Source: Polyangia bacterium (lineage in GTDB: Bacteria; Myxococcota_A; Polyangia; Fen-1088). Taken from it: a DNA stretch of 33,286 nt. The first letter of the stretch is position 1; each line of letters opens with the position of its first letter. Positions 1-27,578 of the stretch are shown piece after piece. The stretch spans positions 1 through 33,286 of the forward strand of contig DASZVW010000179.1 in the NCBI GenBank assembly GCA_035546895.1, written 5' to 3'. The translations under genes were made by a program, and so were the position numbers. The notes beneath the pieces are model-generated. The model had not been told where the DNA came from. It searched no databases and worked only from the letters and a program-made list of their open reading frames with translations.

Positions 1-560
1 CGCTGGAGAGCGGTCAGGCGGTGGTGGCCCGCGCCAATGCCCATGTCACCTATCCGGCGCGGGTGCAGCTGGTGGCGGCGATGAATCCCTGCCGCTGCGG
101 CCATCTCGGCGATGCCGCGCTCGCCTGCGCGCGAGTCCCGCGCTGCGCCGCCGATTACCAGGCGCGGGTGTCCGGGCCGCTGCTCGACCGGATCGACCTC
201 CACGTCGAGGTCCCCGCGCTCCCCTACCAGCAGCTCGCCGAGGCGGCGCCGGGCGAGCCGACGGCGGCGGTGCGCGCGCGGGTCGGCGCGGCGCGGGAGC
301 GGCAGCGCGCCCGGGGGGCCGCCTGGAACGCCCGCCTCGCCGCGGCGGCGCTGGCGCGGGTGGCGCCGATCGACGCCGCCGGGCACGCGCTGCTCGAACG
401 GGCGGCCGCCCGCCTCGGCCTCTCGGCGCGGGCCATCACCCGGATCCGGCGCGTGGCCCGCACCGTTGCCGACCTCGAGGGGAGCGACGCCGTCCGGGCC
501 GTCCACCTCGCCGAAACCCTCCAGTACCGCATCCTCGACCAACCCACACCCGTGACCTGA
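1..560 (+). CDS. comM: Mg-chelatase-like ATPase ComM/YifB, C-terminal part (5' end lies outside the window)
   Basis: The frame is open from the window edge to TGA at 558-560. The translation ([30 protein letters not shown] ... [19 protein letters not shown] ... HLAETLQYR) matches the conserved C-terminal region of YifB/ComM proteins. Confidence 0.85.
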
Positions 561-577
561 CCGAAAAGGAGAGAGCC

Positions 578-1165
578 ATGTCCAGCATCAAAGAGAAGAT
601 GAAAGCAGTGGCCGGCGCGATCGCCGCCATCGAGAAGCAGTTCGGCAAGGGGGCCATCATGCCGCTCGACGGCGGCGAGATCACCGAGGTGGACGTAATC
701 CCCACCGGCTCCGTCGGCCTCGACGTGGCGCTGGGCGTGGGCGGCCTGCCGCGCGGCCGGGTGATCGAGATCTACGGCCCGGAGTCGTCCGGGAAGACCA
801 CGCTGACGTTGCAGGCGATCGCCCAGGCCCAGCGCGCCGGCGGCGTCTGCGCCTTCATCGACGCCGAGCACGCGCTCGACGTCGGCTACGCGCGCAAGCT
901 CGGCGTCCGCATCGAGGAGCTCCTGGTCTCGCAGCCCGATCACGGCGAGCAGGCGCTGGAGATCGCCGACAAGCTGGTGGCCACCGGCGCCGTCGACCTG
1001 ATCGTCATCGACTCGGTCGCCGCGCTGGTCCCCAAGGCGGAGATCGAGGGGGAGATGGGCGACGCCCACATGGGGCTGCAGGCCCGGCTCATGAGCCAGG
1101 CGCTCCGCAAGCTGACCGCCGCCACCGCCAAGAACAACACCGCGGTCATCTTCATCAACCAGCTG
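578..1165 (+). pseudogene. recA: recA, 5' portion only (codons 1 to ~196), interrupted by the mobile element
   Basis: ATG at 578 follows the RBS AAGGAGAG. The translation is canonical RecA: [11 protein letters not shown], Walker [20 protein letters not shown], Walker [34 protein letters not shown]. Similarity stops after Q195/L196. The read-through tail (1166-1312) is R/P/A-rich and antisense to the recombinase gene. Confidence 0.9.
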
Positions 1166-2741
1166 TGTACAGCTGAGCAACGCCGTGCTTGGCCCGCGAA
1201 GCCAGCAAAAGTCGGGCTTCGACGCGCGCAGGCCCGATTTTCACGGCGTTTTCGTCCTTGGCCAAGATGGCCCGGACGATATCACGGCGATCCTCGGCTG
1301 TCGCAAATCTGAGCTTTTCGCGGAGGTCTTCGACGGCACTCCGGAGCGCCTTAGAGCCCTGCTCTCGGGAGGGACGCTTCTCCGAGGCAGCCTTCGCGAT
1401 GTCGAGCGCCGCGGCCCCTGCAGCGCGATCCTTGGAGAGCCGAACGAGCTCCTTGTCCAAAACGGATTCGGTGATCAGGCCCCGACCGAAGCGCTCGAGA
1501 AGAATCTCTTCCGCGCGCACGAGCTGCTTGAGCCGGGACTCAAGCCGGGGCACGGCCTTCGGATCAGGACCGGCGTCCACCTCCTTCTCACGCTCGGCGA
1601 CCGCGCGTTCGAGATGATCCTCTCTGATGACTGCGGTGAGGACTGCCTCCCAGAGCTTCGCGTCTACAGCATCCGAGCGAAACATCGGCAAGTCGCAAGC
1701 ATGCTCGGAGGGCTTCGGCCGCCGGCGTCGCGAGCAGACATAGTAAAAGTTGCGGCGGGTACCGGCACCGGTCTGCCAAGAGCCAGTCGACGCGCATCCG
1801 ATAGGCGCGCCGCAGGCCCCGCAAGTGGAGATGCCCTGCAGCAGGTACTGATGGGGGTTGCGGAGCTGACCCCTGCGCCCAGCACGAAGGAGCGCTGAGT
1901 CTGCGCGGGCGTAGAGACGGTCATCAATGATTCGGGGTACGGGTACCACCAGCGCTCGAGCTTTGTTTGCGACCCAGCGACCGAGATAGGTACGGGCCCG
2001 GACGATCTGGTGGACCCGTTCACGGATCCAGACGCCGGGCGCCCGCCGACCAGACTTGCTCGGTCGCGCGCGGGGGACGGCGCGCGCCTGGAGATCGCGC
2101 GCGATGCTCTCGCAAGTCTCGCCATCTGCTACTCGGGTGAAGATTTCAACGACGATGGGACCCAGCTCGGGGTCGACGCTCCAGGTGGAGGTTTCTCGGT
2201 TGTAGAGGTAGCCGAACGGCGTTGGGCCGGCCGGCTTCTTGCCCTTCCGGATGGCTTCGTCCTTCCCGCGAAGGATCCGTTCGCGGTGCTTTCGGTTGGC
2301 CTCCGCTGCGAAGAAGGTTCCGAGGCTCGACATCAGGTCGCCGACCGACGACCGCAGGTCCAAGATTTGCCCCGTCGACGACACAGCCAACTGGACACCG
2401 GCGCGCTGGAACGCACCCAGAACCTCGCCACGCTCCTGGAGGTCTTCCGATCGCGTGAGGCGGTCGAGATCGACAACGGTTACGACGTCGAAGGCGCCTT
2501 GAGATGCATCGTGGATAAGGCGAGTAAAGGCCGTGCGCTTGGCGAGAAAGCCTTCCTTAGCGGTGCGACCATCATCGACGTAGGTCTCGGCTGGCTTGAC
2601 GAGCTTCCAGCCGCGCGCGCTGACGAAGGTGGGTAGCGTCGCGAGCTGCGACGCGATCGTATGCCGGTCCCGCTGTGCTACCGATGAAACGCGCGCGTAG
2701 ATGACGGCGCGGAGGCCAGGCCCGGGAGCGTCAACCGCCAT
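1155..2741 (-). CDS. Large serine recombinase (integrase)
   Basis: ATG at 2741 gives [32 protein letters not shown], the resolvase catalytic-Ser motif. This is followed by a recombinase domain, a zinc-ribbon region ([10 protein letters not shown] ... YYVCSRRRR ... HAC) and a coiled-coil C-terminus. The stop TGA is at 1155-1157. In-frame upstream alternatives are ATG 2795 and GTG 2963. Confidence 0.9.
1160..1175. other. Candidate attL crossover core: CAGCTGT-GT-ACAGCTG
   Basis: A perfect 7-bp inverted repeat (1160-1166 and 1169-1175) flanks a non-palindromic GT (1167-1168). It sits exactly where RecA similarity ends and inside the last codons of the serine recombinase gene. A 2-bp central dinucleotide between inverted half-sites is the known architecture of serine recombinase sites. 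Confidence 0.5.
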
Positions 2742-3110
2742 GGCGGCTGGCGATCCGCTTGAGAATGCGCGTGAGCTCTGCAACCGCGTACTCATCGTCC
2801 GTCCTAGCGAAAGAGAGCTGGAGTCTAAGGGCAGATGCTCGCGATGCGCTACCCGTTCCTGGCACAGCCAGCGAGGAAATGACGGCGGAAGTACCCGAGA
2901 GATTCGCGGGGCCGGAGGCGGACACCATGTGTCTGACCACCCTCGGTGGGAGCCGGCGATCACGCCGTCGAGCAGCCGAGGCAGGGAGCCGTGAAGCGGG
3001 CCGCCTCACGGCCCGTCACCTATTGTCGCCGCGAGCGCCCGAGCGGGGGCCCGACGCCGGGGATAGTTCGACGTGGAAAACCGCCAGGTGGTAACCGCTC
3101 CAAACACAGT

Positions 3111-3154
3111 GGAGTTATCGAGATCGGGCCCGAAAAAGGGACCTGAATTCGAAC
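3111..3154 (+). repeat. Conserved 44-nt intergenic motif, copy A
   Basis: GGAGTTATCGAGATCGGGCCCGAAAAAGGGACCTGAATTCGAAC. It matches copy B at 34/44 positions without gaps, and its first 13 nt are identical to copy D. It lies upstream of the recombinase gene on the minus strand and 77 nt upstream of the plus-strand ORF at 3231. Confidence 0.7.
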
Positions 3155-3230
3155 GGGAATCTGGCGCCCGTGAGCTGCGGCGGTCCTTGCCGCGGCGCGG
3201 CAGACCAGGCCGGGTGGTACGGTAACTCAG

Positions 3231-3506
3231 ATGGGGGAGAATCGATGTCGGCGATGCAATACCGTCGTGGACTCGCCAGGGTGGCTCTGTTGGCTGTGCG
3301 ATGGGCCGCTGTGCCACGACTGCGGAGAGCGCCACGGCCACTGTGACCACCAAGGTCCGCCACTCGATGATTTGGACCGTCTGTGGGCGACGGCCGACGA
3401 GGTGAAGCGGGCGGAGCTCCTAGCCGCAACGCGAGAGCTCGCCGCGAAGTACGAGGGCCGAACCCCGATGATCCTGCGCCGTCCAATATCAGGTGAGCCC
3501 AACTAG
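3231..3506 (+). CDS. Small Cys/His-rich (zinc-finger-like) hypothetical protein
   Basis: ATG at 3231. The N-terminus CRRCNTVVDSPGWLCWLCDGPLCHDCGERHGHCDH has paired CxxC motifs. The stop lies 2 nt before the next ATG (3509). Confidence 0.5.
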   Translation: MGENRCRRCNTVVDSPGWLCWLCDGPLCHDCGERHGHCDHQGPPLDDLDRLWATADEVKRAELLAATRELAAKYEGRTPMILRRPISGEPN

Positions 3507-3508
3507 GA

Positions 3509-3739
3509 ATGCGCCACGGCGAGGAACCTCCACGGTTCAAGACCGCCCTTCGCCTCACAGCGTTTGGAGCGCAGGGCGCCTTTACCTTCGCCATGGCTCT
3601 GACGGTGGCAGACGTTGCGAGCCAGCTCGCGCCACCTCACCGACACGGGCTCTGGTTCGCGCTGGCAGGAGGAACTGCGGCCCTGGGGTTCTGGCGGATG
3701 TGGGGATGGATCTGGAAGCGGGTTGGCATCCCTTGGTAG
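3509..3739 (+). CDS. Small hypothetical membrane protein (two predicted TM segments)
   Basis: ATG at 3509 is tightly coupled to the upstream ORF. There are two hydrophobic stretches (AFGAQGAFTFAMALTVADV and LWFALAGGTAALGFW). No family was recognised. Confidence 0.4.
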   Translation: MRHGEEPPRFKTALRLTAFGAQGAFTFAMALTVADVASQLAPPHRHGLWFALAGGTAALGFWRMWGWIWKRVGIPW

Positions 3740-3784
3740 CGGCCATCCCCTCGAGCACGGCGAACTCCAGGCCGAAGGTTCTGT

Positions 3785-4129
3785 CTAGTGGCGCCGTGTA
3801 ACTAGAGCCTGCACCACGCCGACGAGGGCAACGAGTACCGCAGTCGCGACCTTCCCCCAGTCAATTCGGCTCCAGAGCGACGCCGGGCGCTTTCGGCGTC
3901 GGTGGGTACCCGGCGGTACCACGAGCGGAACGACCGCGTGGCCTCTCAATCGCTCGAGGATTCGCATCTGCATCCTCGAAATTTGCCGGAGACCCACGCC
4001 CCAAAGAAGAGGCGGATCCAGGATGACTTTGGGGGGGGCTATTCTCGAAGCGAGAAGAGCGGGGTCTATTCTCGCGACAGCCTCAGCTATGGCGCCGTTG
4101 CTGCACTTGCCGACGGAACGCGTAGCCAT
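3785..4129 (-). CDS. Possible small tail-anchored membrane protein (start uncertain; ATG 3973 or 3967 more likely)
   Basis: The ORF ends in a basic stretch plus a hydrophobic helix (RRRKRPASLWSRIDWGKVATAVLVALVGVVQALV). The N-terminal part overlaps the 3' end of the 4087-4965 ORF, and a G8 tract sits at 4031-4038. Confidence 0.25.
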   Translation of the reverse strand: MATRSVGKCSNGAIAEAVARIDPALLASRIAPPKVILDPPLLWGVGLRQISRMQMRILERLRGHAVVPLVVPPGTHRRRKRPASLWSRIDWGKVATAVLVALVGVVQALVTRRH

Positions 4130-5179: not shown

Positions 5180-7711
5180 ATGTCGGGGCGTGACGACTTC
5201 ACAAAACCTGTGGCGCGGAAATTGGCAACCCGCGCCGGCAACCGCTGCTCGAATCCAGATTGCCGTCGAGACACGAGTGGGCCCGCGTCGACAGTAGACG
5301 GGACCATGAATGTAGGCGTAGCTGCGCACATAACCGCCGCGGCCGAGGGTGGTCCGCGCTTCGATCCTGAGCTGAGCCCCACTGACCGCTCGTCTATCTC
5401 GAACGGCATTTGGCTCTGTCGGTGGTGCGGCACGCTGATCGACAGCGACGAGTCGCGATTCACCAAAGCAGTACTGTTGGCGTGGAGAACTTCAGCGGAG
5501 GCGCTCGCGCGCTCCCGCCTCGATACTCCCGCCCGCCCGGAAGGTCCTGACGAGCCACTTCTGCGCTTGCCCGATTCTGATCCCTCGGTGTCCTGGCTCA
5601 CCTTTTCTTCCCGCGCGACCACGTTCGTGGGGCGAGACGACGAGCGGGCTCGGTTGGCGACCTTCTTGAGAGAAGATCGGAAGGTCTCGTGGTGGCTCAT
5701 GACCGGACCTGCCGGTGCGGGCAAAAGTCGGCTCGCGCTGGAGGTCTGCCGTCAAACACAGCCGGAGTGGGCTGCTGGTTTCCTAAGCCGGACCGACGCG
5801 TTTCGGCGTTGGTCCCATTTTCGTCCCGCCCGACCCACGTTGATCGTAGTGGACTACGTCGCAAGCCGAGTCGCCGAGGCAAGTGGTGTGGTTCAAGAAC
5901 TGGTACGCGCAGCTCCGCACCTTCCCCACCCTGTGCGTGTTCTGCTTCTTGAGCGCGAGCAGGGATCATGGTGGCCGAGATTCCTTCGAGAGGATAGCCA
6001 GAGCGAGTGCGCGGAGCTCCTTGAAGCAGAACACGACGAACCGCTGCGTCTCGGGCCCCTCGCGTCGACGGCACTCCGATCGATAGCGGAGGATGTGGCG
6101 CGATTGGAAAGTAGGTCCTGGTCAGAGACATCCGGACAAGCATTCGATTCGCGGATGCGAATCGTGGACCCGCTCGGGCGCCCGCTGTTTGGAATGATCG
6201 CGGCTGCGTACCCCGGGAACGACATGGTCCACGGCATCGCCGATTCGGACGTTCTGAGACTTGTCTTGAAAAAGGAAGCGGCCCGACGAGTACAGATATT
6301 GCCGGACCAGGAACAGCGACAGAGGATCGAACAGCTGATGACCCTCGCCACAATGGTCGGCGGCCTTCTCCCTAGATCTGACGGCTTTGCGTTTCTTTCG
6401 GCGACAGACGTTGGACCGCTGCTTCCCGTGCCGGACCTCATCGAGCCGCGTGTGTACCGCGACGCGGTTGCCGCGACAAATGCGGACCCAGCTCTTGCCG
6501 GGTTGCAACCGGATATCTTGGGAGAGCGCTTCGTCCTCGATCGCTTAACCGCTGGAGACGGCTCTCACTTCGCCGCGCGGAAGCTCTTGGTCGTAGGCTG
6601 GAAGATTCAGCCGGACGACGTTTGTGACTTCGTGGTGCGAACAGCGTCCGATTTCCCGGGCGATCCAGGCCTTGAAGTGCTCTGCGCGTTGCCGACGGAC
6701 TCGCCGCTAGCGCGAAGTCGATGGGGACGCCTGGTGGCTGATCTCATACGCGTGGCCAATCGGAGCACTGACCCGATGACGGGCCGCCTGCTCTCAGCAC
6801 TGCGCGAGCTCGTTCGGAAACATTCAGATGAGGAACACGTTGCGCGAGCGCTCGCGTTGGCCGAGCTGTACCTTGGCAACATATTCCTCTTCGCCGAGGA
6901 GAACTACTCCGAGGCTCAGTCGCGGTTCGAAGCGGCGATCGCTCTCGCTCGTGGCGCTTCTGACATCGTCGCGGCGGCAGTCAATAACCGTGGGATCGTC
7001 TACCACCTCATCGAGAACGAGGATAAGGCGTTTGCCGACTGGAGTGACGTGATTTCGGCTTCGATGATTTCCGATGAAGCGCGCGCGTGTGCGCTGAACA
7101 ACCGCGCAGACGTGTTTGGACGCCGTGGCCTTCATGAGCAATCGATCGCCGATCGTGCCGCGGTGCTTGCTCTGCGTGAGACATCTGCCGATCGCCGCTA
7201 TATCGCCCTGATTAGGCGTAGCAGGTCATACGTTCAGCTCGGTCGAAGCGGCGATGCTCTTGACGACCTGGGAATGATCCTCCGCACCGACGATATTTCG
7301 CCCCAGCAGAAAGCCGAAGCTCATGTTCTTCGGGGGGCGCTGCTAAGGGACCTTGGACACCTTGACGATGCCAGACAGGATTTGGACTCTGTGCTCGCCG
7401 AGGAGGATTTGTTCTATGGAACGTATCCTGAAGCGCTCGTTGAACTCGGCGAACTTGCGCGGCTCACCGGTGATGTTGAACGGGCGCGCGAGTACCTTGA
7501 TGCTGCTTCTGCTTCGGTTGACGCGAGAGGCGATACACTCGCTGAAGCGCTGATAGTAAGGGCGCGCCTTCTGACGGACGAGGGCGACGCTGCGGCTGCC
7601 GAAAGCATATGGCAGCGCGTACGTACCGATCCAGCTGCGACGCCTCGACAGGCATTGATCGCGTCGAATCGGGATGTACCGGCGCGGCTCAGCCACCCGA
7701 TAGGTGTCTAG
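5180..7711 (+). CDS. HNH-like nuclease / STAND P-loop NTPase / TPR three-domain protein (Avs-like antiviral STAND candidate)
   Basis: ATG at 5180 follows GGAGAG. The N-terminus has an HNH-type motif (CSNPDC ... VAAHITAAAEGGPRFD ... SNGIWLCRWCGTLIDSD). Walker A is LMTGPAGAGKSRLALEV (nt ~5702-5728) and Walker B-like is TLIVVDYV. The C-terminal ~300 aa show TPR-like repeats (AELYLGNIFL..YSEAQSRFEAAIAL, NNRGIVY, NNRADVF and others). Confidence 0.85.
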   Translation: MSGRDDFTKPVARKLATRAGNRCSNPDCRRDTSGPASTVDGTMNVGVAAHITAAAEGGPRFDPELSPTDRSSISNGIWLCRWCGTLIDSDESRFTKAVLLAWRTSAEALARSRLDTPARPEGPDEPLLRLPDSDPSVSWLTFSSRATTFVGRDDERARLATFLREDRKVSWWLMTGPAGAGKSRLALEVCRQTQPEWAAGFLSRTDAFRRWSHFRPARPTLIVVDYVASRVAEASGVVQELVRAAPHLPHPVRVLLLEREQGSWWPRFLREDSQSECAELLEAEHDEPLRLGPLASTALRSIAEDVARLESRSWSETSGQAFDSRMRIVDPLGRPLFGMIAAAYPGNDMVHGIADSDVLRLVLKKEAARRVQILPDQEQRQRIEQLMTLATMVGGLLPRSDGFAFLSATDVGPLLPVPDLIEPRVYRDAVAATNADPALAGLQPDILGERFVLDRLTAGDGSHFAARKLLVVGWKIQPDDVCDFVVRTASDFPGDPGLEVLCALPTDSPLARSRWGRLVADLIRVANRSTDPMTGRLLSALRELVRKHSDEEHVARALALAELYLGNIFLFAEENYSEAQSRFEAAIALARGASDIVAAAVNNRGIVYHLIENEDKAFADWSDVISASMISDEARACALNNRADVFGRRGLHEQSIADRAAVLALRETSADRRYIALIRRSRSYVQLGRSGDALDDLGMILRTDDISPQQKAEAHVLRGALLRDLGHLDDARQDLDSVLAEEDLFYGTYPEALVELGELARLTGDVERAREYLDAASASVDARGDTLAEALIVRARLLTDEGDAAAAESIWQRVRTDPAATPRQALIASNRDVPARLSHPIGV

Positions 7712-7712: not shown

Positions 7713-8750
7713 TCACCCCCTCCCTCGACCATCACACTCACTCACTCGCTTCCCCCAGACCTGCCGTCCCGTGACGGGATGGAAGTTGATCCGCGCGCGA
7801 TCTCCCCGAAGAGCGATAGACCTGGCGTCGTAGGCCTCAGCGGCGGCGCGTTCCTTCGGAAAGATCCCGAGCGCTGTGTTCCGCCCGTTGTGCGCAATCT
7901 GTGCGCGCCAGCCGCCTTGCCGTGAGTCCCACGAGACCCCGATGTAGCGGCTCGACTTGGCCAGCTTTCCCTCCTTCCTCGCTTCGCTCACGATGGCAGC
8001 CGCGTCTGCCGGCGCGGCCCGCTCTCGCGGAAAGTTCAGCACCGGCGCATCACCAAGGTAGTAGCGGGCTGCGCGGTCGTACGCTCGAGCGGCATCCTTC
8101 TCGGTCGCCCAGGTGCCGAGGTGCATGCGGCGTCGGCCTGGGACCCCTATCTGTGCCGTCCAGGGTCGCCAAGAGTCTCGTGCGACGAGGAAGACCCCCC
8201 GGTACCTGCTGGTGAGCGTATCGGAGGCGCGTGAGTCCCTCGCGGCCGTCCGTAGGTCTGCGGGTGAGGCGGGCGCTAGCCGCCGGCGCGGAAAGTTCAG
8301 ATGAGTTCGGTCAGCTCGCAGGAAGACCGCCGCCCGATCGTGCGCCTCTGCCGCCTCCTTTTCACTCCTCCAATGTCCGAGGTGGATTCGGTCATCGCCA
8401 GCGTGGATCTGTGCCCGCCACCACGGGGAGGCAGCGTCAACACCTCGAAAACGGCTTGTCGCTGAGAGCTTCGATAGCTGCCTAGCCTCGTTCTGCAGGG
8501 CGCTCGCGTCCGCGGGTACCAAGCGCCTTCGGGGGAAGTTCCGCGGGGCGTCCGGCCCTCGATAATGTAGGGCAGCGCGGTCGTACGCCTGCGCGGCCTC
8601 AAGCTCCGTGCTCCAGGCACCGAGGGATGCACGCCCAGAACCGGCGAGTCTGATCTGAGCGGTCCAGCTCCGGGCTCGATTCTTAAGGCGATGAACGCCT
8701 AGGAACCTGCTCGCTTTCGGAGCTTCTGACCGGGGCGCACCCGGCGTCAC
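7713..8750 (-). CDS. Protein composed of four tandem AP2/ERF-type DNA-binding domains
   Basis: Four repeats start at residues S14, S99, S181 and S267. Each fits S-R-[FY]-x-G-V ... W-x-A-Q-I ... L-G-x-[WF] ... E-x-A-A-x-A-[YH]-D-x-A ... N-F-P, the bacterial AP2 signature. The stop at 7713-7715 lies 1 nt from the stop of the convergent STAND gene. Confidence 0.85.
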   Translation of the reverse strand: MTPGAPRSEAPKASRFLGVHRLKNRARSWTAQIRLAGSGRASLGAWSTELEAAQAYDRAALHYRGPDAPRNFPRRRLVPADASALQNEARQLSKLSATSRFRGVDAASPWWRAQIHAGDDRIHLGHWRSEKEAAEAHDRAAVFLRADRTHLNFPRRRLAPASPADLRTAARDSRASDTLTSRYRGVFLVARDSWRPWTAQIGVPGRRRMHLGTWATEKDAARAYDRAARYYLGDAPVLNFPRERAAPADAAAIVSEARKEGKLAKSSRYIGVSWDSRQGGWRAQIAHNGRNTALGIFPKERAAAEAYDARSIALRGDRARINFHPVTGRQVWGKRVSECDGRGRG

Positions 8751-9870: not shown

Positions 9871-11925
9871 TCACGATGGTCTTCCGGCGTTGCGGCGCCG
9901 TCGCCGATGCCTGGTGTGCTGCTGGTCGGCGTCCTGAGTGAAGGAACAGGTCGGGTAGTTCGAGCAGGCCCAGAAGGCACCGCTCTTCCCGGGGCGCTTT
10001 CGGAGCGAGCCGCTACAGCCTGGCGAGCGGCAGGGTCGAATCTCGACGGCAGGGAGATTCAGCGGCCCCGCGCTCTTGGCCCGGGCGACGAGCTCGCCGA
10101 GCTGCTTTCGGACGGCGTGAAGGAATCCGTCGAGCGGAGCCTGGCCGTCCTGGACCTTTCGAAGTGTCGACTCCCAGAGCGCGGTCATGTCCGGCTGCGT
10201 GGCGACGGACGGAAGAGATCGGATGAGCGCCCGCGCCGTCGGTGTCGAGTAAATCTGGCGCTTGTTCTCTTCGACGTACTTGCGATCGAACAGGCGCTGG
10301 ATGATCGCTGCTTGTGTCGCTGGTGTTCCTATCCCGTCGGTCTCGCGGAGAAGAGCCTTGATCCGAGGGTCCGAAACGTACCGAGCGATTCCGGTCATCG
10401 CCTGGACGAGGCTAGCGGCCGTGAATCTACGCGGTGGCTTCGTCTTCTTGGCAACGATGCGCGTCTGGGCGACGCGCAGGACCTGCCCACGTTGGAGGGG
10501 CGGAATGGGAGAGTGGGGGTCGACATCGTTCTCTGCGGCTGGAGCGTCGGGATCATTTCCGCCGCCCTGCTCATCATCCGTGAGAGCCTCATAAAGGCGG
10601 CGCCACCCCGGAGCAATCGGCTGACGGCCGGTGGCGATGAGGCGTTCTCCAGCGACGATGAGTTCTGCCTCGAGCTGGTGGTACTCGAAGGGTGGACAAA
10701 ATTGCGCGAGGTAGCGTCGAGCGATGAGGTCGTAGACAGCGAGCTCGTCTTTCGACAGCCCTCCCGACTTCTCGGGTCGCGGAGTCGGAATGATCGCGTG
10801 GTGAGCCGTGACTTTCGCGTCGCTCCACGCCTTCGAACGAATCGAAACGTCCGCCGCGGCGGCCGCGGCAGCGATCTGAGGGTCGACGACGGCGATCGCC
10901 CGGACGACATCGGTCGCCTGGGCGAGGTGGCCTTCCGGCAAATGGGAGCAATCCGAGCGGGGGTAAGTGACGAGACGGTGCGTTTCGTAAAGCGCCTGGC
11001 AGACGTCGAGGACGGTCTTGGGATTGAGCCCCAGCTTGCGACCTGCGTCGATCTGGAGGTCCGACAGCGAGTACGGCAGCGGGGCGGCCTCGGACTTCTT
11101 CTCGCGGGTCGCCTTCACCACCGTAGCCGGTTGGCCCGCGATCTTGCGGTCGATGGCGCCGGCAACGGCGCTGCTCACGAGCCGCCTCTCATCGTCGAGG
11201 GCCGAGTCGGCCGCCGGGCCCGGCCGCCAGCTGGCAGCGAAGGGATGGGCGGCGCCGGCGACGTCGGCGACGATCGAGAAGTAAGGCTTCGCGACGAAGT
11301 TCTCGATTTCGAGGTCGCGCCGGACGATCAGACCGAGGAGGGGCGTCTGCACGCGGCCGACGGAGAGGACGCCGTCCTGATAGCCGGCTTGTCGGCCGAG
11401 GACGGTGTAGAGCCTGGTCATGTTGATGCCGTACATCCAGTCGGCGCGCTGGCGGCCGAGCGCGGCGTCGTAGAGGGAGCGGAAGTTGGAGTTGGGCTGG
11501 AGGGCGCCGAGGGCCTTGCGTACCGCACTCGGATTGAGGTCGCTGATGAGGATGCGCTCCACCCGCCCGCGAAAGCCGAGGTATTGGAGGACCTCGTCGA
11601 CGAGCAGTTGGCCCTCGCGGTCCGGGTCGCCGGCGTTGACCACGACGTCGACGCGAGGGAGGAGGGCCTTGATGGTCTTGAGCAAGTCGGGCGTCTTGAC
11701 GGCGAGCTTCCATTCGGTCGGCGTGATCGGAAGGTGCTCGAGCTGCCAGCTCTTGAAAGCAGGGTCGTAGGCGTCTGCCTCCGCGAGCTCGAGGATGTGG
11801 CCTGCGCACCAAGCGACCAGGTCGGCTCCGCATTCGATGTAGTTGTCGCGACGCTGTGGCTGCGGAAGGACGTCAGCGATCGCGCGGGCGAGGGACGGCT
11901 TCTCGGCGACGAAGAGACGGCGCAT
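9871..11925 (-). CDS. topB: DNA topoisomerase III
   Basis: ATG at 11925 follows GGAG. It has a Toprim N-terminus (MRRLFVAEKPSLARAIA ... NAGDPDREGQLLVDEV), an active-site Tyr region (HRLVTYPRSDC) and a C-terminal zinc ribbon (CRSPGCSGSL ... FWACSNYPTCSF). Confidence 0.95.
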   Translation of the reverse strand: MRRLFVAEKPSLARAIADVLPQPQRRDNYIECGADLVAWCAGHILELAEADAYDPAFKSWQLEHLPITPTEWKLAVKTPDLLKTIKALLPRVDVVVNAGDPDREGQLLVDEVLQYLGFRGRVERILISDLNPSAVRKALGALQPNSNFRSLYDAALGRQRADWMYGINMTRLYTVLGRQAGYQDGVLSVGRVQTPLLGLIVRRDLEIENFVAKPYFSIVADVAGAAHPFAASWRPGPAADSALDDERRLVSSAVAGAIDRKIAGQPATVVKATREKKSEAAPLPYSLSDLQIDAGRKLGLNPKTVLDVCQALYETHRLVTYPRSDCSHLPEGHLAQATDVVRAIAVVDPQIAAAAAAADVSIRSKAWSDAKVTAHHAIIPTPRPEKSGGLSKDELAVYDLIARRYLAQFCPPFEYHQLEAELIVAGERLIATGRQPIAPGWRRLYEALTDDEQGGGNDPDAPAAENDVDPHSPIPPLQRGQVLRVAQTRIVAKKTKPPRRFTAASLVQAMTGIARYVSDPRIKALLRETDGIGTPATQAAIIQRLFDRKYVEENKRQIYSTPTARALIRSLPSVATQPDMTALWESTLRKVQDGQAPLDGFLHAVRKQLGELVARAKSAGPLNLPAVEIRPCRSPGCSGSLRKRPGKSGAFWACSNYPTCSFTQDADQQHTRHRRRRRNAGRPS

Positions 11926-12027: not shown

Positions 12028-12777
12028 TCAGTTGAGGCGGATGGCGCCCTCGGCCAGGGCCCGGCGACTGAAGGTCGGATGCGACGCGACTGGGAAGGAG
12101 GTACCGTCGAACACCCGGACGCTCTCGGAGTGGACGCGCGACAACAGACGGACTTGGCCGTCGCTCCAGTTCTCCAGGTGGTGATAGAGAAGTCCCCTGA
12201 CCTCGGCGGTGGCGCCTACGCAGAGGGCCGGCTCGAGCGCGTCGCCCCAGAAGACGACGTCATGGGTTGCCGGGAAAGGAGAGCGGGTCGAAACGGTGAC
12301 CCGGGGGAGGCCGTCGTCGTTCTCGATCGCGATGACCTTCCCGACCAGGTGGATCTGGTTTTGGGCATAGGTTTCGAGCTTGGGAGGAGGGCAGTCGTGC
12401 GGCCGCTCGAGCTCGGGAAGCGCCAGGACGCGCGCGAATATCTGGCGCGCCGTGGGCGCGGGGTGGATCACTGTCGCGCTGCGAACGGAAATCTTGGCGA
12501 TGCGCTGGTAGAGGTCTCGTCGCGCGCGACTGTTCACCAGGAGGGGACCGTCGACGCGCACGGCGGCGCCGTCGCGAATGGTCTTCGCGAGCTGCGATGC
12601 CGTCTCGCCGACAGCGATGCAGCGCTGTCTATCAGCGATGTCACGGCCGGGATTGAACTCGGCGGTGGTGTTCAAGTAGAACTTGAGCACAGGCCGACCG
12701 ACTCGGTTGAGTTCGAGTTCGAGTATCTCGTCGACGATTCCGGCGATGGTGGCGCAGTTGGCGTGTACGGGCTTCAT
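12028..12777 (-). CDS. Hypothetical protein with two SSB-like OB-fold halves
   Basis: ATG at 12777 follows GAGGAG. Both halves follow the SSB-type pattern (NCATIAGIVDE...VLKFYLNT...CIAVGETASQLAKTIRDGAAVRVDGPLLVNS and QIHLVGKVIAIEND...VVFWGDALEPALCVGATAEVRGLLYHH). There is no acidic C-terminal tip. Confidence 0.6.
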   Translation of the reverse strand: MKPVHANCATIAGIVDEILELELNRVGRPVLKFYLNTTAEFNPGRDIADRQRCIAVGETASQLAKTIRDGAAVRVDGPLLVNSRARRDLYQRIAKISVRSATVIHPAPTARQIFARVLALPELERPHDCPPPKLETYAQNQIHLVGKVIAIENDDGLPRVTVSTRSPFPATHDVVFWGDALEPALCVGATAEVRGLLYHHLENWSDGQVRLLSRVHSESVRVFDGTSFPVASHPTFSRRALAEGAIRLN

Positions 12778-12861: not shown

Positions 12862-13626
12862 TCACATGCCGCGTTCGACGCTCTTGCCGCGCTGGCGGCC
12901 GCGCGCGCGAGCTGGCGGGGGCGGCGTGGCCGGCTCGCGCTCGGGTGCCTTGGCCTGCTCCGACGCCTGCTGCCGCTCCTGGGTGCGCTCGAGGACCTGG
13001 AACTGCCGGCAGTCGATGCCGGACAGGCGGCGCTCGACGCCCTCGGGGCCTGGGATGCTCTTGTGGCGGACGGAGCCGTTCACGGAGATCGTGTCGCCGG
13101 CGCTGATCTCCTTGAGCGCGAGCTCGCCGGTCTTGCCCCACATGGTGACGTTGTGCCAGTCGTCGCGCTCCTTGCCGTTCTGGACGGTCGTCGTCGCGAC
13201 GCTGACGGCAGTGAGGGTCGCGCCGCTCTGGAGGGTCTTCTGCTCGACGCTCCGAACGACACCGATGAGCTGGGCCTCGTTCATCGAGGTGAAGTTCTCG
13301 ATGGCGGGGGCAGCCGAGTCGATGTGCAGCTCCAGGACGCGGTGTTTGGCCCCGTCCTTCTCGTAGCTGTTGACCCGGAGCGATCCGGTGAGGCTGACGC
13401 CCTTGCCCTTGTCGAAGTCGGCGGCGACCTTCTCGGCCATATCGCCCCAGGCGACTGCGCGAGTCCATTGGGTGTCCTCGCGGATGTTTCCGCCCCGGTC
13501 GGTGTAGCGCTCCGAGGTGGCAATGTTGAGACGGGCGAATTTCACGCCCTCACTGGTCTCGCCGAGCTCCGGTTTCTGGCCGAGGCGGCCGACGAGGGTT
13601 GCGGTGCTGATGTGTTCACGGTTCAT
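12862..13626 (-). CDS. ssb: Single-stranded DNA-binding protein with two tandem OB folds
   Basis: ATG at 13626 follows AAGGAGA. OB1 is ATLVGRLGQKPELGET..GVKFARLNIATSERY...TQWTRAVAWGDMAEKVAADFDKGKGVSLTGSLRVNSYEKDG. OB2 is QLIGVVRSVEQK...DDWHNVTMWGKTGELALKEISAGDTISVNGSVRHK. The tail is basic and Pro-rich rather than the usual acidic tip. Confidence 0.85.
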   Translation of the reverse strand: MNREHISTATLVGRLGQKPELGETSEGVKFARLNIATSERYTDRGGNIREDTQWTRAVAWGDMAEKVAADFDKGKGVSLTGSLRVNSYEKDGAKHRVLELHIDSAAPAIENFTSMNEAQLIGVVRSVEQKTLQSGATLTAVSVATTTVQNGKERDDWHNVTMWGKTGELALKEISAGDTISVNGSVRHKSIPGPEGVERRLSGIDCRQFQVLERTQERQQASEQAKAPEREPATPPPPARARGRQRGKSVERGM

Positions 13627-13684: not shown

Positions 13685-14107
13685 TCAGCGGCGGGCGAGC
13701 AGAGGCGCGATGTCGACGCCGAGGCAGAGGAGCGCGTCGTTGACGTCCTCGTGCGAGTAACCGTCGTCGATCAGAGCGACGAGCTCCGGCGCGAGCCGCA
13801 TGACGAGGCCCCAGGTGTTCAGGACCGGGGTGACGCCGCGGTAGCGGGCGAGTGCCCTCAGCTTCTTGGAGATCTTTTCCGCGTCCGCGATGGAGTAAGC
13901 CGGCTGGGCGCGGGCCTCGGCCAGAGTGACGGTAGTACCGAGCGACCCCTCGTCGATCGCTCGGCCGAGAATCCGCGCCAACAGCGCCCCCGCGAGCCGG
14001 ACGGAGTCGATGCAGTCCGACAGGTGGTGAACTTCAGGAAGGCGCTCCGAGAGCTTGCCGACATGCTCGTCGAGCTCCTTTGAAAACACGGAGTCGGCGG
14101 ACTTCAT
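13685..14107 (-). CDS. Hypothetical protein, translationally coupled to trbI
   Basis: ATG at 14107 overlaps the trbI stop as ATGA, and AAGGAGG lies upstream. No family was recognised. Confidence 0.6.
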   Translation of the reverse strand: MKSADSVFSKELDEHVGKLSERLPEVHHLSDCIDSVRLAGALLARILGRAIDEGSLGTTVTLAEARAQPAYSIADAEKISKKLRALARYRGVTPVLNTWGLVMRLAPELVALIDDGYSHEDVNDALLCLGVDIAPLLARR

Positions 14108-15549
14108 CGGGGACCTCCTTGGTTGGTGTAGGGCGGGAAGACGATGTCCTTGGTGACGATGACGTTGACGCTGTAGCCAGCGCGGACGGTGATGGTTGGT
14201 TGAATGGCGAGGTTCTTCTGCGTGATCTGCTGGCCCGCCGTGTTGACCGCGCCGCCGGCGTTGGCGGCCCAGCCCTGGGCGATCGTGGGCTGGTACCCGC
14301 TTGGGTTGCCGGCCGCGCGCTCAGCGGTGGCAGAGAGCAAGGTGCCGAGCGCGACGCCGGTGATGATTCGCCACCAGTGGTGGTTGACCTCGTCGGCGAT
14401 GCCGGAGGCCCCAGCGAGGTCGGCTCCTGGCATGCACTCGAGGGAGATCGAGATGCCATCCGGCCTGATGACGCGGTTCCAGCAGAGAAGAACGCGCTCC
14501 TGGCCGTAGGAGACCGCCGAGTCGTACGTGGCCAGGAGCTTCGACCCCTGCGGGATGATCAGGTAGTTGCCGGAGACCGTGTCGTACACGTTCTCTCGGA
14601 CCTGGCCGATGATGGTGCCTGGCAGATCGCTGTTGATGGGCGTGAGAAGCGTCGTCGGGATGATGGTGCCGGCCTTCACCTCGAAGGGGCTCCTGGGCAT
14701 GATGACGGGCTGGTTGAGATAGGTCGCGGTGTTGACGCCGTCGCGCGCGAGGAAGTCCGACTTGTGCTGCTGCATGTTCGGATCACCAGTGCCAGCGCCT
14801 CCGAGCGGGAGCTGTTGCGGCGAGTCCGCTTTCGCGGTGCCGGGAGCGCCGGTGCCGGCGAGGAGAGCCGCGGCGGCGTTGGCGGCCGCGCCGCCTAGGG
14901 TGTCGGTGCCAGAGCCCTCGATGTCGACGAGAATCGACGAGCCGACGGCCTTCTGCCGCTCGTCGCGGATCGTCTCGCGCAAAGAGGAGTGGCCGAATGA
15001 ACCGGCGCCGCGGCGCTCGGCTGTCGGTGCTTGATCGTCTGGAAGATCGGCACCGTGCAGGGGCTTGCCGAGCTTCGGGGGCTGGGGGTGGAGATCGGCG
15101 TTGTTGCCGGGAGCGTTCTCGACGGCCTCGGGGATGGGGACGCCCTTGGTCTGGCTGTCGGTGTCGGGCGCGGTGGCGGCGTGGGCTTGTTGAGAGCGGG
15201 GCGAGAAGGCAACCGCGGCCGCGAGTAGGACGGCGGCCGTGAGAGCCCCGCCGATGAGCAGAATTGGACCGCGGCGGAGGCTGCGGGCCTGGGGCTTCTC
15301 GAGCTGCAGGCCGGGGTGATCAGGTGGAAGCCGGGTAGCGTAAGTCATCTGGGTAGGCGGTTCCCCGTCCGCGCGCAGCTCGTCGCCGGCGTCGCCCGCG
15401 CCTCGAGCGCCCGTGTTCTCAGCGATGAGGTCGGGGTGCGCCTCGTGGCCCGGCGCCTGCGGAAGCGGGCGGAGGGGAACCGGCACGTCGCGGCTGCCGG
15501 TGTGCTCCAAGTCCGGCGGGAACATCGTGCGTGTTGTCGTGTCGTCCAT
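14104..15549 (-). CDS. trbI: Conjugal transfer protein TrbI (VirB10 family)
   Basis: ATG at 15549 follows GAGGAG. It has a Pro-rich N-terminus, one TM segment, and the conserved core GTIIPTTLLTPINSDLPGTIIGQVRENVYDTVSGNYLIIPQGSKLLATYDS...GQERVLLCWNRVIRPDG...DEVNHHW. Confidence 0.9.
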   Translation of the reverse strand: MDDTTTRTMFPPDLEHTGSRDVPVPLRPLPQAPGHEAHPDLIAENTGARGAGDAGDELRADGEPPTQMTYATRLPPDHPGLQLEKPQARSLRRGPILLIGGALTAAVLLAAAVAFSPRSQQAHAATAPDTDSQTKGVPIPEAVENAPGNNADLHPQPPKLGKPLHGADLPDDQAPTAERRGAGSFGHSSLRETIRDERQKAVGSSILVDIEGSGTDTLGGAAANAAAALLAGTGAPGTAKADSPQQLPLGGAGTGDPNMQQHKSDFLARDGVNTATYLNQPVIMPRSPFEVKAGTIIPTTLLTPINSDLPGTIIGQVRENVYDTVSGNYLIIPQGSKLLATYDSAVSYGQERVLLCWNRVIRPDGISISLECMPGADLAGASGIADEVNHHWWRIITGVALGTLLSATAERAAGNPSGYQPTIAQGWAANAGGAVNTAGQQITQKNLAIQPTITVRAGYSVNVIVTKDIVFPPYTNQGGPR

Positions 15550-15562: not shown

Positions 15563-16549
15563 TTAACGGGTGCGGATGATCCGGACGATTTCTTGGTTCT
15601 GCTGGCCGATGCGCAGCTCCGCCGATTCGAAGAGGCGATCGACGATGTAGGTGTCGTTCTTCACGCGGTAGTTCACGAGCTGCGTATCGCCGGTGCTCGA
15701 GAGGACGAACAGCGCGGGCGCCTCGCGATCGAGCATCGCTTCGGGGAAGCGGATGTACGTCTTGTGCCCGTCGTCGAACACCTGCGCGGGCACCCATTGC
15801 GGGCGGCCGTTCATCACGGCGACGCCGTAGTTGAAATTGAGTCGGTCGACGGTGACGGCGGTCGGCGTGGCCGCGGCGCTGAGGGCCGCCTGCTGCTCAA
15901 GGCCTGCCTCCAGCTGAGCGGCGTCGTCCTGCGGGTAACGCCAGGCGACGGCGGCCATGTACGTGTCGTCGTACGAGTGCAGCTCGAGGATGTACGACCG
16001 GCGATCGGTGTTGAGCGCCAGGGTGGTTTCGAGATCGGGCCGCGTGGGCTTGATGTAGATGTGCGGCTGCTCGCTGCCGCCCGACGAGGACGCGCTCTTG
16101 GCGAGAATCCAGCGGACGTTGTCTCCGATGGCGGGCTTGCCCACGAGGTGCTCGCCGGGCTGCAGCTGGACGTCAGTGAGGTGCTCGGGGGCGGTGTAGA
16201 TTTGAAACAGCGTTCCCGGCGCGTAGTCGTAGGTCATGATAGCGTTGATGTACTCCTCGGCCTTGGGCCCCTCGGTGGCCTTCCGGTTGGCCTCGCGGAT
16301 GACGTCGGAGGGCCGGCGGCTGTGCGCCGCCGGCGTCGTGTGTCGGACCGCGACGGCCATCGGCACCGCGCTGTGCTTCAACTGGCCTGGCATGGGCATC
16401 ACCTTCGGAATCTCGACGACGACAGGCTTCGGCGGCGGGTCCTTCACCGGTTCGGCGCGCACGTAGTTCGGCGGCGGCTGTCGGCCGGCGCACGACAGCG
16501 CTGGCAGGAGGAAGAGGAGGGCGAGCGCTTGATGGGTCAGTCGGTTCAT
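15563..16549 (-). CDS. trbG: Conjugal transfer protein TrbG (VirB9 family), with signal peptide
   Basis: I trimmed the listed 544-aa ORF to ATG 16549, which overlaps the trbF stop as ATGA. The N-terminus is MNRLTHQALALLFLLPALSCAG. The core is YDYAPGTLFQIYTAPEHLTDVQLQPGE...GDNVRWIL...IYIKPTRPDLETTLALNTDRRSYILELHS. Confidence 0.9.
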   Translation of the reverse strand: MNRLTHQALALLFLLPALSCAGRQPPPNYVRAEPVKDPPPKPVVVEIPKVMPMPGQLKHSAVPMAVAVRHTTPAAHSRRPSDVIREANRKATEGPKAEEYINAIMTYDYAPGTLFQIYTAPEHLTDVQLQPGEHLVGKPAIGDNVRWILAKSASSSGGSEQPHIYIKPTRPDLETTLALNTDRRSYILELHSYDDTYMAAVAWRYPQDDAAQLEAGLEQQAALSAAATPTAVTVDRLNFNYGVAVMNGRPQWVPAQVFDDGHKTYIRFPEAMLDREAPALFVLSSTGDTQLVNYRVKNDTYIVDRLFESAELRIGQQNQEIVRIIRTR

Positions 16550-17268
16550 GGCGTTGTCCTTTCGGCGGCGATGGGTGTCGAGAGGCGGGCCCAATGGAGC
16601 TCGTCGATGTAGAGACCGAGCGGGTTGAGCGCGAGCTGATCGGCGTTCTCGGGGACGCGAAGGAGGACGTGAAACGTCCCGCGCCAGGCGGCGGTGCCTG
16701 TCGGGTTGCCGTGGTCGTCCCAGGTGGTCTCGGTCCAGTCGACCTGCCAGGTCTCCTGGGTGATCTGGACGATGACGGACACCTGCAGGCTGACGCGGAC
16801 TTGCGCCTGCAGCTGGTCGAACGGGTTGTGGTCGTGGACGTAGGCGTTGAGCTGGTTCGCGCCGTTCGACGTGACGAGCTTGTAGGCGTCGATCCAGTTG
16901 CGCTTGAGGACCGCGGGGTCGGAGGAGATCTCGCGGGTGTCGAAGATGAAGCGACGCAGGTGGTAGTGGAGCGACGCGGTCGAAGGCTTGAAGTCGCGCA
17001 GCGCGGCCTTGTCGAGCGGGCCGAGATAGGTGGGCTGTCCGAGCTTGTCGACCTCGACGATGTGGGGGATCGCCTTGGGCTGGGCGGCGAGGTAGAGGAG
17101 GCCGCAGCAGGCGAAGAACAGGAGGCCGATGAGAGCGAAGGTCGCGAGGCGCCAGTTGGCGGCCTGAACGGTGGCGGCTCCCATGCGGAGGTCCCACTCT
17201 TGGCGGGCCTTGAGGTAGGGGGTCTCAGCGGGTTCGGCGGGGCGCCAGGAGGGGCGAGAGTTTTTCAT
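16546..17268 (-). CDS. trbF: Conjugal transfer protein TrbF (VirB8-like)
   Basis: ATG at 17268 (the listed ORF starts one codon earlier at a GTG). It has a single TM segment (WRLATFALIGLLFFACCGLLYL) and the conserved end ALNPLGLYIDELHW. Confidence 0.9.
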   Translation of the reverse strand: MKNSRPSWRPAEPAETPYLKARQEWDLRMGAATVQAANWRLATFALIGLLFFACCGLLYLAAQPKAIPHIVEVDKLGQPTYLGPLDKAALRDFKPSTASLHYHLRRFIFDTREISSDPAVLKRNWIDAYKLVTSNGANQLNAYVHDHNPFDQLQAQVRVSLQVSVIVQITQETWQVDWTETTWDDHGNPTGTAAWRGTFHVLLRVPENADQLALNPLGLYIDELHWARLSTPIAAERTTP

Positions 17269-17274
17269 CACGCC

Positions 17275-17318: not shown

Positions 17319-18449
17319 TTAGACGTGCGATTTATTCGCGCTGGCTCCGCCGGCCTTGGCTGCGCCGCCGCTCGACGCGCCGTTCCGGCCGCCGGAAGCG
17401 GCGTCGGGACGGGTGTTGCTGGCCACGGTGGCGCTGTCCCGGCCGCCCGCTCCCGTACCGCCGGAGCCTCCGCCTCCTCGGCCGCCCAAGTGGAGGGCGG
17501 AGGCGAGATGCTGGAAGGCGCCGGCAGCGCCGCCGCCCCGGCTACCACCGCCCGCCGCGCCGGAGGCGGCGGCAGTAGCGGCCTGAGCCCCCAACGAGGT
17601 GCCGCCCGAAAGGACGGCAGCACCGGTGGAGACCGCGCTGGTGACGTGCTGGCCGACGGCGTTGGCGCTGAGCGACGGGGATGCGGCGAGGAGGTCGGCG
17701 GCGAAGCCTGGTGCGCGCCAGACGAGGATCGCCAAGAGGATGCAAACGAGGCACATCGCGAGCGATTCGTTCAGGAGGACCTCGTTCCCTGTGGAGCTGA
17801 AGTGGAGCTGGCCCAACACGGGCTGGATCAGTGCCACCGTGAACGAGAGGACCATGAGCTTGACGCTGACGGCGACGGCGGCGCCGATTGCCTTCTCAGC
17901 GAGAAATCGCGTGTGCTGCGAGATGCCGAAGGGGATGAGGCAGCTCGCGAGGGTGACGACCAGGTAGTACTCGATGACGGCGATGCAAACCTGGCACGCG
18001 ATCAGGAAGAAGGACGCGACGAGAATCACGTAGCAGATAGCGTCGAGAATGAGGTCGCCGAGGTGGGTGATGCCGGCGTCCTGCATCGACTGGACGAGGG
18101 GCTGGGTGACGTCGAGGGCCATGCCAGCGATCTTGGAAGGGTCGAGGATGAGCCCGACGTTGCCGCCGGCACCGCCGGCGCTGAGAGCGATCTGGACCAG
18201 CGAGTCGGAGAAGAACTTCACCAGGGCGGGGAAGTGGGCGGCGAACCAACACCAGAAGCTCAATTGCATGAACTTCTTGAAAGGCTCGGAGACGGAGCCG
18301 CCGTCGAGGGCCATCCAGAGGCAGAAGGTCACGATCTCGATGATGGCGAGACCGCTGAGGAGGCCTCCTGCAGCTCCGACGCGGGCTTGGGCGCCAGAGA
18401 GCGCGTTGATGAAGGTGGTGAGGGTGCCGGTGAGGACGTTGAAGGTCAT
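17319..18449 (-). CDS. trbL: Conjugal transfer protein TrbL (VirB6 family)
   Basis: ATG at 18449. It is a polytopic membrane protein (LSGLAIIEIVTFCLWMAL, FWCWFAAHFPAL, ICYVILVASFFLIACQVCIAVIEYYLV and others) with the Gly/Ala-rich C-terminal tail typical of TrbL. Its position between trbJ and trbF fits. Confidence 0.85.
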   Translation of the reverse strand: MTFNVLTGTLTTFINALSGAQARVGAAGGLLSGLAIIEIVTFCLWMALDGGSVSEPFKKFMQLSFWCWFAAHFPALVKFFSDSLVQIALSAGGAGGNVGLILDPSKIAGMALDVTQPLVQSMQDAGITHLGDLILDAICYVILVASFFLIACQVCIAVIEYYLVVTLASCLIPFGISQHTRFLAEKAIGAAVAVSVKLMVLSFTVALIQPVLGQLHFSSTGNEVLLNESLAMCLVCILLAILVWRAPGFAADLLAASPSLSANAVGQHVTSAVSTGAAVLSGGTSLGAQAATAAASGAAGGGSRGGGAAGAFQHLASALHLGGRGGGGSGGTGAGGRDSATVASNTRPDAASGGRNGASSGGAAKAGGASANKSHV

Positions 18450-21102: not shown

Positions 21103-21113
21103 GGGGTACCTCC

Positions 21114-23576: not shown

Positions 23577-23586
23577 GAGGTTCTCC

Positions 23587-23847: not shown

Positions 23848-23856
23848 CGTTGGGCT

Positions 23857-27577: not shown

Positions 27578-27578
27578 G

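Follow-up and report, generated by a model that had tools for sequence, protein, structure and literature searches.

The locus described here raises the question of whether recA, which encodes the central recombinase and SOS co-protease and is, to our knowledge, almost never a tolerated target for insertion, can serve as the integration site of a mobile element. The window, by which we mean the whole stretch of 33,286 nucleotides that was analysed (contig DASZVW010000179.1 of the Polyangia bacterium assembly GCA_035546895.1), holds the first half of recA and, converging on it from the opposite strand, the gene of a large serine recombinase (LSR). An earlier note on this DNA had proposed that recA is split at about codon 196 by a conjugative element bearing this recombinase. 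The split at codon 196 was borne out: it is site-specific, it was found at the same codon in other contigs, and the corresponding empty site exists in relatives. The insertion is real, site-specific and recurrent, and is not a chimera. We consider it highly probable that an element bearing a type IV secretion system (T4SS), and putatively conjugative, was inserted by its own LSR into the recA frame of a Polyangia-type myxobacterium.

The left end of the window, where the insertion is seen, is made up of the following features.

21 to 560, plus strand: 3' end of a comM/yifB-type Mg-chelatase-like ATPase gene, the host flank (Pfam Mg_chelatase and Mg_chelatase_C).
578 to 1165, plus strand: recA 5' half, codons 1-196, at its native position (tblastn, Pfam and nucleotide alignment to the intact locus L060).
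1155 to 1175: attachment junction of the attL type (read from the sequence, from attL junctions against intact recA, and from the candidate attP of L007/L014).
1166 to 1312, plus strand: out-of-context tail of the truncated recA reading frame, 48 codons, antisense to the LSR 3' end.
1155 to 2741, minus strand: large serine recombinase, 528 aa (Pfam Resolvase 5e-20, Recombinase 4e-11, Zn_ribbon_recom 2e-8).

By tblastn, positions 578-1165 of the plus strand corresponded to residues 1-196 of E. coli RecA with 67% identity (E = 8e-81), and positions 1-188 of the 262 in the Pfam RecA profile (PF00154) were matched with E = 2e-95, which confirmed the RecA N-terminus that had been recognised from position 578. 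The 5' half retains Walker A, Walker B and the segment ...AVIFINQL. The open reading frame (ORF) as read spans 578-1312, and its last 48 codons are unrelated to RecA; tails of the same kind (LCTPEQRR..., LRTAEQRR...) were present in many truncated RecA proteins from metagenomes. Protein and DNA similarity to recA both end at nucleotide 1165. A tblastn search with E. coli RecA gave no second significant match in any frame of the 33,286 nt, in agreement with the earlier statement that the C-terminal half is missing from the remaining 32 kb, and the insert is longer than 32 kb, as had also been stated, with the element continuing past the right end of the window. The G+C content is 0.744 in positions 1-1000 and 0.60-0.69 thereafter, with a drop from 74% to 65% at the joint.

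The uninterrupted form of this locus was found on a 203 kb ENA contig (L060), which carries the comM-recA pair with a near RecA homologue (P0303). Window positions 47-1165 aligned to it with 86% nucleotide identity, and the blastn alignment ended exactly at 1165, which turned the approximate end point given earlier into a precise one. The recA that is interrupted in the window is an intact ORF in relatives. The comM/yifB-type gene lies directly upstream of the split recA, and the same comM-recA order occurs in L060, L059 and L142. A duplicated remnant of the recA 5' half was ruled out by the native comM-recA position and by the fact that only 3' halves were ever found duplicated, while an intein, an intron or an insertion sequence was ruled out by an insert of more than 32 kb with LSR and T4SS genes.

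The recombinase gene starts with an ATG at 2741, the very position at which the earlier note had ended its feature, and stops with a TGA at 1157-1155, inside the recA-derived arm; the LSR gene that had been noticed to end on the opposite strand at the breakpoint in fact reaches 8 nt into recA-derived sequence. Its end, ...GCT GGT TGA TGA AGA..., is the antisense of the recA codons ...TCT TCA TCA ACC AGC... A resolvase-type catalytic domain is present (PF00239, 5e-20), with the motif AVIYARVSS near the N-terminus, and the catalytic motif was conserved across 28 aligned LSR homologues. C-terminal to this domain are a Recombinase domain (PF07508, 4e-11) and a zinc ribbon (PF13408, 2e-8), the cysteines being invariant in the alignment. 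The homologues (P0001-P0028) are 56-96% identical to the window LSR, with the best match at 96%. Among the plasmid-borne LSRs of PLSDB, none exceeded 28% identity to the protein, and its similarity to SprA and to the TP901-1 and other solved integrases is distant (E = 1e-7 to 1e-8). The TGA stop is supplied by the recA arm when the element is integrated and is kept at the same position in the candidate attP arm described below (L007, L014, L018). As the stop codon is preserved in both states, the LSR C-terminus is identical whether or not the element is integrated.

The empty site, attB, was read from L060 and L059 as ...GTC ATC TTC ATC AAC CAG CTG CGC CAG AAG ATC GGC..., and the joint in the window, marked here by a slash, reads ...ATC TTC ATC AAC CAG CTG / TGT ACA GCT GAG CAA C... 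The attB sequence is pseudo-palindromic (ATCTTC...CAGCTG...GAAGAT) and encodes F-I-N-Q-L-R-Q-K-I; from the alignment with E. coli RecA and the RecA structure, we take these codons to be the end of the strand before loop L2 and the start of the L2 DNA-binding loop. An inverted repeat, CAGCTGT-GT-ACAGCTG (1160-1175), straddles the joint. Occupied and empty sites coexist among RecA N-halves that are at least 96% identical (P0121-P0123 versus P0126).

Three contigs (L007, L014 and L018) carry an LSR gene followed by about 30 nt that resemble the recA antisense arm at roughly 18 of 30 positions (counted by hand), in the pattern GGTTGA-N17-TTGT, with the stop kept and no recA ORF behind it. In a neighbour-joining tree, the LSRs of L007 and L014 were sisters of those in the integrated L016 and L013. 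We regard these arms as candidate attP sites. The longest stretch common to attB and the candidate attP is TCAACCAGCTG (1155-1165), 11 bp at most. Since the candidate attP could be compared with both attL and attB, the exchange would be confined to this stretch, and strand exchange probably falls in the AGCT of CAG/CTG.

Use of this recA codon characterises an entire clade of LSRs: relatives 45-96% identical to that of the window adjoin recA there in at least nine independent metagenome contigs in the same orientation and in three in the opposite one. A profile of the 28 LSR homologues was scanned against Joint Genome Institute (JGI) metagenome contigs, which gave 52 loci. The orientation of the window, with the 3' end of the LSR gene lying directly against antisense codons for RecA residues 1-196/197, was found in L008/L009, L010/L011, L013, L016, L021, L025, L027 and L045; L019 and L029, whose flanks are short, probably share it. 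Each LSR ORF in this orientation ends ...GGT TGA TGA AG..., with the stop taken from recA, and these LSRs, which come from different samples, are 45-77% identical to that of the window. A RecA match that reached residue 223 in L008/L009 was rejected as a spurious BLAST extension. The RecA N-half of L010 is 98.5% identical to that of the window while its LSR is only 72% identical, which indicates independent insertions of different elements at the same site in nearly the same host. The closest LSR (P0001, 96% identical) and a truncated RecA 98% identical to that of the window (P0121) both come from 6.6 kb contigs.

The opposite orientation, at the same recA codon, was observed in L005/L006, L015 and L023, where the sequence encoding RecA from residue 193 to its C-terminus comes after the LSR gene and on its strand. 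The regions concerned are 11569-12045 of L005, L015 and 2077-2505 of L023, the LSRs showing 66% and 48% identity, and the LSR ORF runs about 25 codons into recA in another frame. These LSRs fall twice inside window-type clades of the neighbour-joining tree. Relatives located outside recA were also present, namely in L001 and as the first LSR of L004.

The same breakpoint was seen among predicted proteins. Among the best 120 RecA N-half cluster representatives, 70 read on normally and 8 were uninformative, while 3 diverged behind GNPE, where a second hot spot lies some 12 codons further downstream. Directly after FINQ(L), 39 diverged (39/112 informative clusters, all Polyangia); these counts do not estimate prevalence, since clustering at 90% sets up a separate cluster for every different fusion tail. 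Antisense LSR C-termini (LCTPEQRR..., MPTWASGQ...) make up most of the tails past the break. The split state of recA is common. As a control, recA loci from assorted other taxa were intact in 77 of 80 cases, the other 3 being cut by contig ends, and none lay near an LSR among the matches listed. The viral contigs scanned contained two distant LSR relatives, neither of them beside recA.

Some related loci depart from the simple pattern. The break after GNPE (P0211, P0213 and P0240) is possibly the target of a 45%-identical LSR clade; for P0213 and for the LSR P0068 alike, the longest contig measures 33,367 nt, and only this equal size suggests that they lie together. L004 contains two LSR genes 8 kb apart (10001-11674 and 20070-21674). 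Its distal LSR is fragmented and abuts a truncated recA (P0150), and its proximal LSR is intact, stands next to an IS21 and is followed by CAGCTGGTT but not by recA, so that the locus looks like a nested or decayed composite. In L142 (10001-10723), a recA N-half (…FIKQ/NRTRDNG…) is followed by radical-SAM, GtrA, MIP and OprB-type genes with a fall in G+C from 0.70 to 0.64; neither an LSR nor a recA 3' half was found within 10 kb, and the locus is either another junction type or a decayed element. P0139 is a full-length RecA whose N-half is 92% identical to that of the window and whose C-half is of a quite different type (REKIGVMFG…KQAEFDIMFAEGIS…), so that it is an artefact of assembly or else a chimera that arose naturally at this breakpoint.

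The content of the inserted DNA indicates the kind of element that is involved. Its recognisable genes to the right of the LSR are listed below.

5180 to 7711, plus strand: HNH-like nuclease, STAND NTPase and TPR protein, cargo (Pfam AAA_16, nSTAND_NTPase5, TPR; PADLOC).
7713 to 8750: AP2-domain protein, following the STAND NTPase gene.
9871 to 11925, minus strand: topoisomerase III-like protein (Pfam Topoisom_bac 7e-104, Toprim, Zn_ribbon_Top1).
12028 to 12777, minus strand: protein like the single-stranded DNA-binding protein SSB (Pfam SSB 2e-5).
12862 to 13626, minus strand: SSB (Pfam SSB 6e-37).
14104 to 15549, minus strand: VirB10/TrbI (Pfam TrbI 8e-59).
15563 to 16540, start approximate, minus strand: VirB9/CagX (Pfam CagX 5e-63).
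16546 to 17271, minus strand: VirB8 (Pfam VirB8 2e-42).
17319 to 18449, minus strand: VirB6/TrbL (Pfam TrbL 3e-30).
21114 to 23576, minus strand: VirB4/TrbE ATPase (Pfam CagE_TrbE_VirB 1e-12, P-loop_TraG).
23577 to 33286: further element DNA, G+C 0.61-0.68, with mostly unannotatable ORFs, running off the window.
24294 to 24719, minus strand: third SSB (Pfam SSB 8e-26).
29373 to 30164: helix-turn-helix/MqsA-like protein, within the right part of the element.

The homologues of VirB4, VirB6, VirB8, VirB9 and VirB10 are mating-pair-formation T4SS genes and occupy 14.1-23.6 kb. The VirB9 reading frame runs over 15563-17197, with the CagX match on its C-terminal 225 residues and a homologue of 319 aa in L005. 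The order T4SS-SSB-topoisomerase III-LSR was also observed beside LSR homologues in L001 and L005. The element combines three SSB-family genes with a topoisomerase III, and this backbone is kept in L001 and L005. The product of 5180-7711 (843 aa) matched the PADLOC model PDC-M68A with 2e-23, and endonuclease effector models fell on its residues 6-115; it is likely to be defence cargo of an Avs-like type. In the right third of the window, Pfam, NCBIfam and PADLOC returned nearly nothing.

A mechanism can be proposed from these observations. The element would have entered by exchange between attP and attB, presumably with the 2-bp stagger expected from serine integrase chemistry. In this orientation, the LSR gene occupies the end of the element that adjoins the recA 5' half, on which it converges. 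Excision, for which a directionality factor would be needed, would restore recA base-perfect as ...TTCATCAACCAGCTGCGCCAGAAG..., since no bases are gained or lost in strand exchange by serine integrases. In the integrated state, the recA product is cut to 196 native residues, with Walker A, Walker B and L1 kept and L2 and the C-terminal part gone. As L2 and everything after it are missing, this copy should be inactive, a prediction drawn from the sequence. Directly observed are the split at its exact codon, the LSR and T4SS genes, the vacant site in relatives and the repeated use of this target; the crossover position, current mobility, precise excision and physiological effect are what we infer for the element.

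The consequences for the cell depend on the host. In NCBI, the RecA proteins closest to that of the window are named, for example, 'MAG: recombinase RecA [Polyangia bacterium]', where MAG stands for metagenome-assembled genome, and the host is a Polyangia-type, soil myxobacterium-like organism. All sequenced myxobacteria except Anaeromyxobacter are reported to have two recA genes, between which functions are divided in M. xanthus (Sheng et al., PMC7029660). With myxobacteria mostly having two such genes (PMC7029660), the earlier suggestion that the element ties the recombination and SOS capacity of the host to its integration state is probably an overstatement. A second recA paralogue would explain the wide tolerance of the split gene.

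The relatives in the opposite orientation showed a further structure. On L059 (a 2.5 Mb contig), on L061 and in the gene maps of the P0260 and P0279 contigs, recA is intact and keeps its native place behind comM, but one or two additional recA 3' halves lie 2-7 kb downstream of it. The regions concerned are 3007-4043 and 9944-10435 of L059 and 1044-2091, 6973-7479 and 14411-14881 of L061. In L059 and L061, an arm of at most about 40 nt from an LSR 3' end stands before every extra 3' half, with no LSR gene. The two 3' halves of L059 are 95.5% identical; nearly all differences are synonymous and fall within the first ~250 nt, whereas the final ~250 nt and 45 nt past the stop are identical except for 2 nt. 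In L143, L144 and L059, the first 15-50 nt past the joint are synonymously recoded toward A/T (AAT CAA TTG AGG CAA AAG ATT). A comparable run was observed in an intact recA (L062, from the Polyangia MAG SMAG_U6031, ~9902-9916), in which 12 of 346 codons end in A or T and five of these are consecutive at 195-199 (CTT CGA CAA AAA ATT), right past the insertion point. This run could be an att 'scar' or could reflect selection on the attB sequence. Taken as a hypothesis, the arrays suggest that opposite-orientation elements carry a replacement recA 3' half and accrete in tandem, an arrangement that L142 does not simply fit.

These observations can be joined into one tentative proposal, which as a whole we regard as possible though rather doubtful. 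One LSR clade would be specialised on the pseudo-palindrome of the recA L2 loop in soil Polyangia and would use it both ways. In the window orientation, the insertion would act as a reversible off-switch of recA, tying the recombination and SOS functions of that copy to the element. In the other orientation, it would bring a replacement 3' half in which synonymous recoding has turned the first ~15-50 nt into an att half-site, with serial integrations leaving tandem arrays of 3' halves and AT-rich 'att scars' in otherwise intact recA genes.

Several points weigh against the insertion of a conjugative element by its own LSR and are considered together. The second junction, that is, recA codons 197 onward joined to the far element end, was not found for the window element, of which the window holds the LSR-proximal junction alone, or for its relatives of the same orientation; the 3'-half proteins that were traced (P0343, P0260, P0279, P0330 and P0270) led only to opposite-orientation junctions or to arrays behind an intact recA. 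The attP assignment of L007 and L014 is based only on sequence mimicry and sister-LSR relationships, and the cluster counts overstate prevalence. No recombination directionality factor (RDF) was recognised in the window, and neither a relaxase nor a type IV coupling protein was recognised in the 32 kb by Pfam and NCBIfam, the element extending beyond the window. The description as conjugative in the earlier note was therefore retained only in part: the genes for VirB4, 6, 8, 9 and 10 support it, whereas the relaxase and the coupling protein are missing from what was recognised. As the element also runs off the right end, it is termed T4SS-bearing and putatively conjugative.

Among the alternatives, the one that survives best is that the element or its excision is dead and that recA has been permanently lost here, with a paralogue covering for it, so that the insertion is a tolerated scar and not a switch. 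We consider this unlikely, although it is not without support: myxobacteria other than Anaeromyxobacter are reported to have two recA genes (PMC7029660), decayed relatives exist in L004 (with a fragmented second LSR at a truncated recA and IS21 nearby) and L142, and no RDF, relaxase or coupling protein was recognised in the window. However, no interruption was seen in the T4SS ORFs, and the LSR ORF has its full length and all three domains. The coexistence of occupied and empty sites at no less than 96% RecA N-half identity (P0121-P0123 versus P0126), together with different LSR variants in near-identical hosts (L010 versus the window), points to ongoing turnover.

It is less probable still that recA function is kept because the element supplies a replacement, either a complete recA further along or a half. 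A recA mobile element (RME) of Vibrio has its own recA at the end opposite the integrase (PMC4405046), RME-like structures occur in the IMG/VR loci L170, L171 and L175, and the opposite-orientation relatives show an intact recA followed by displaced 3' halves. Against this, a RecA-like ORF is absent from the 32 kb of the window element and from the 10 kb of element interior covered at each related locus, and the native 5' half is fused directly to the antisense LSR, so that no replacement half can repair this copy. Lastly, an assembly chimera of a recA-bearing contig with an unrelated mobile element has a negligible probability, for although metagenome assemblies yield chimeras at repeats and the joint has a short palindrome, the identical codon-level junction was found in more than 10 contigs from different samples and assemblers (JGI, ENA, NCBI whole-genome shotgun) with diverged LSRs and recA genes, and dozens of independently called truncated RecA proteins have antisense-LSR tails.

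Insertion by its own LSR, the preferred reading, can be compared with known systems. The nearest precedent is the RME of Vibrio cholerae S24, an island of 32.8 kb that has a tyrosine integrase and lies at bp 494 of recA; it carries its own functional recA and umuDC and excises as a circle, restoring the host recA (PMC4405046). A related recA island is present in V. parahaemolyticus (PMC4334540). Islands that target recA are therefore not unprecedented, and the window element resembles the RME in being inserted at a specific site within recA and splitting the host gene. The differences are considerable: the RME integrase is of the tyrosine ('phage') type with terminal 9-bp inverted repeats, whereas the window element has an LSR; the RME site is at codon ~165 and that of the window element at codon 196; and the RME is without a T4SS, while the window element has T4SS genes. 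The RME holds a complete recA, whereas the window element gave no RecA match past nt 1165 in the 32 kb seen, its far end lying outside the window, and the host phyla differ. Membership in the Vibrio RME family was ruled out, as the integrase class differs. Three IMG/VR loci (L170, L171 and L175) hold a RecA fragment (residues 1-167), about 130 nt and then a complete recA, which is the RME architecture. In another, on a 174 kb IMG/VR contig (L185, 8285-10297), a recA-like gene is split at residue ~203 by ~1 kb; the contig is a large viral one, and the insert may be an intein, a homing element or an intron.

LSR elements that split genes include B. subtilis skin (in sigK, recombinase SpoIVCA), SPbeta (in spsM, recombinase SprA), the A118-type prophage of Listeria (in comK) and the fdxN element of Anabaena (recombinase XisF). 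The window element shares with them an LSR at one element end, insertion in an ORF at a short conserved core and, as a prediction in its case, conservative excision that is expected to rebuild the gene. Those elements are prophages, some of them defective, and leave the chromosome in connection with development or infection, whereas the window element has a VirB-type T4SS and targets recA. The Firmicutes elements Tn5397 (TndX), Tn4451 (TnpX) and SCCmec (Ccr) use a serine recombinase as the integrase of a transferable element, as here, but they differ from the window element in T4SS type, hosts and targets, and we know of none that targets recA. Accretion at one att site is a feature of ICESt1/ICESt3 and the related cis-mobilizable elements (CIMEs), which use tyrosine integrases at the 3' end of fda. 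This resembles the tandem displaced recA 3' halves, each following an element arm, in L059, L061 and the P0260/P0279 contigs. In contrast to ICESt1/ICESt3, the arms here come from the 3' ends of LSR genes, and what is repeated is ~480 bp of coding sequence from recA; the likeness concerns the opposite-orientation relatives and not the window element. Full-text literature searches yielded no report of an LSR element or an integrative and conjugative element (ICE) in recA, nor of any in Myxococcota.

The finding has practical and biological meaning. The natural attB is a 30-bp coding sequence that most bacteria possess in highly conserved form, and with the varied set of LSRs that recognise it, it is of practical interest for integrase engineering. 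Where recA serves as a single-copy marker, it will turn up in fragments in these MAGs. For the biology of the lineage, an element family that resides in recA in a substantial share of a soil lineage raises the question of how recombination and the damage response are managed, to which a second recA is the likely answer. The element itself may gain from silencing RecA, by protection from homologous deletion, by blocking the RecA-dependent induction of rival prophages and ICEs, or by limiting recombination in large genomes rich in repeats. The finding further raises the question of whether excision serves these bacteria as a genetic switch.

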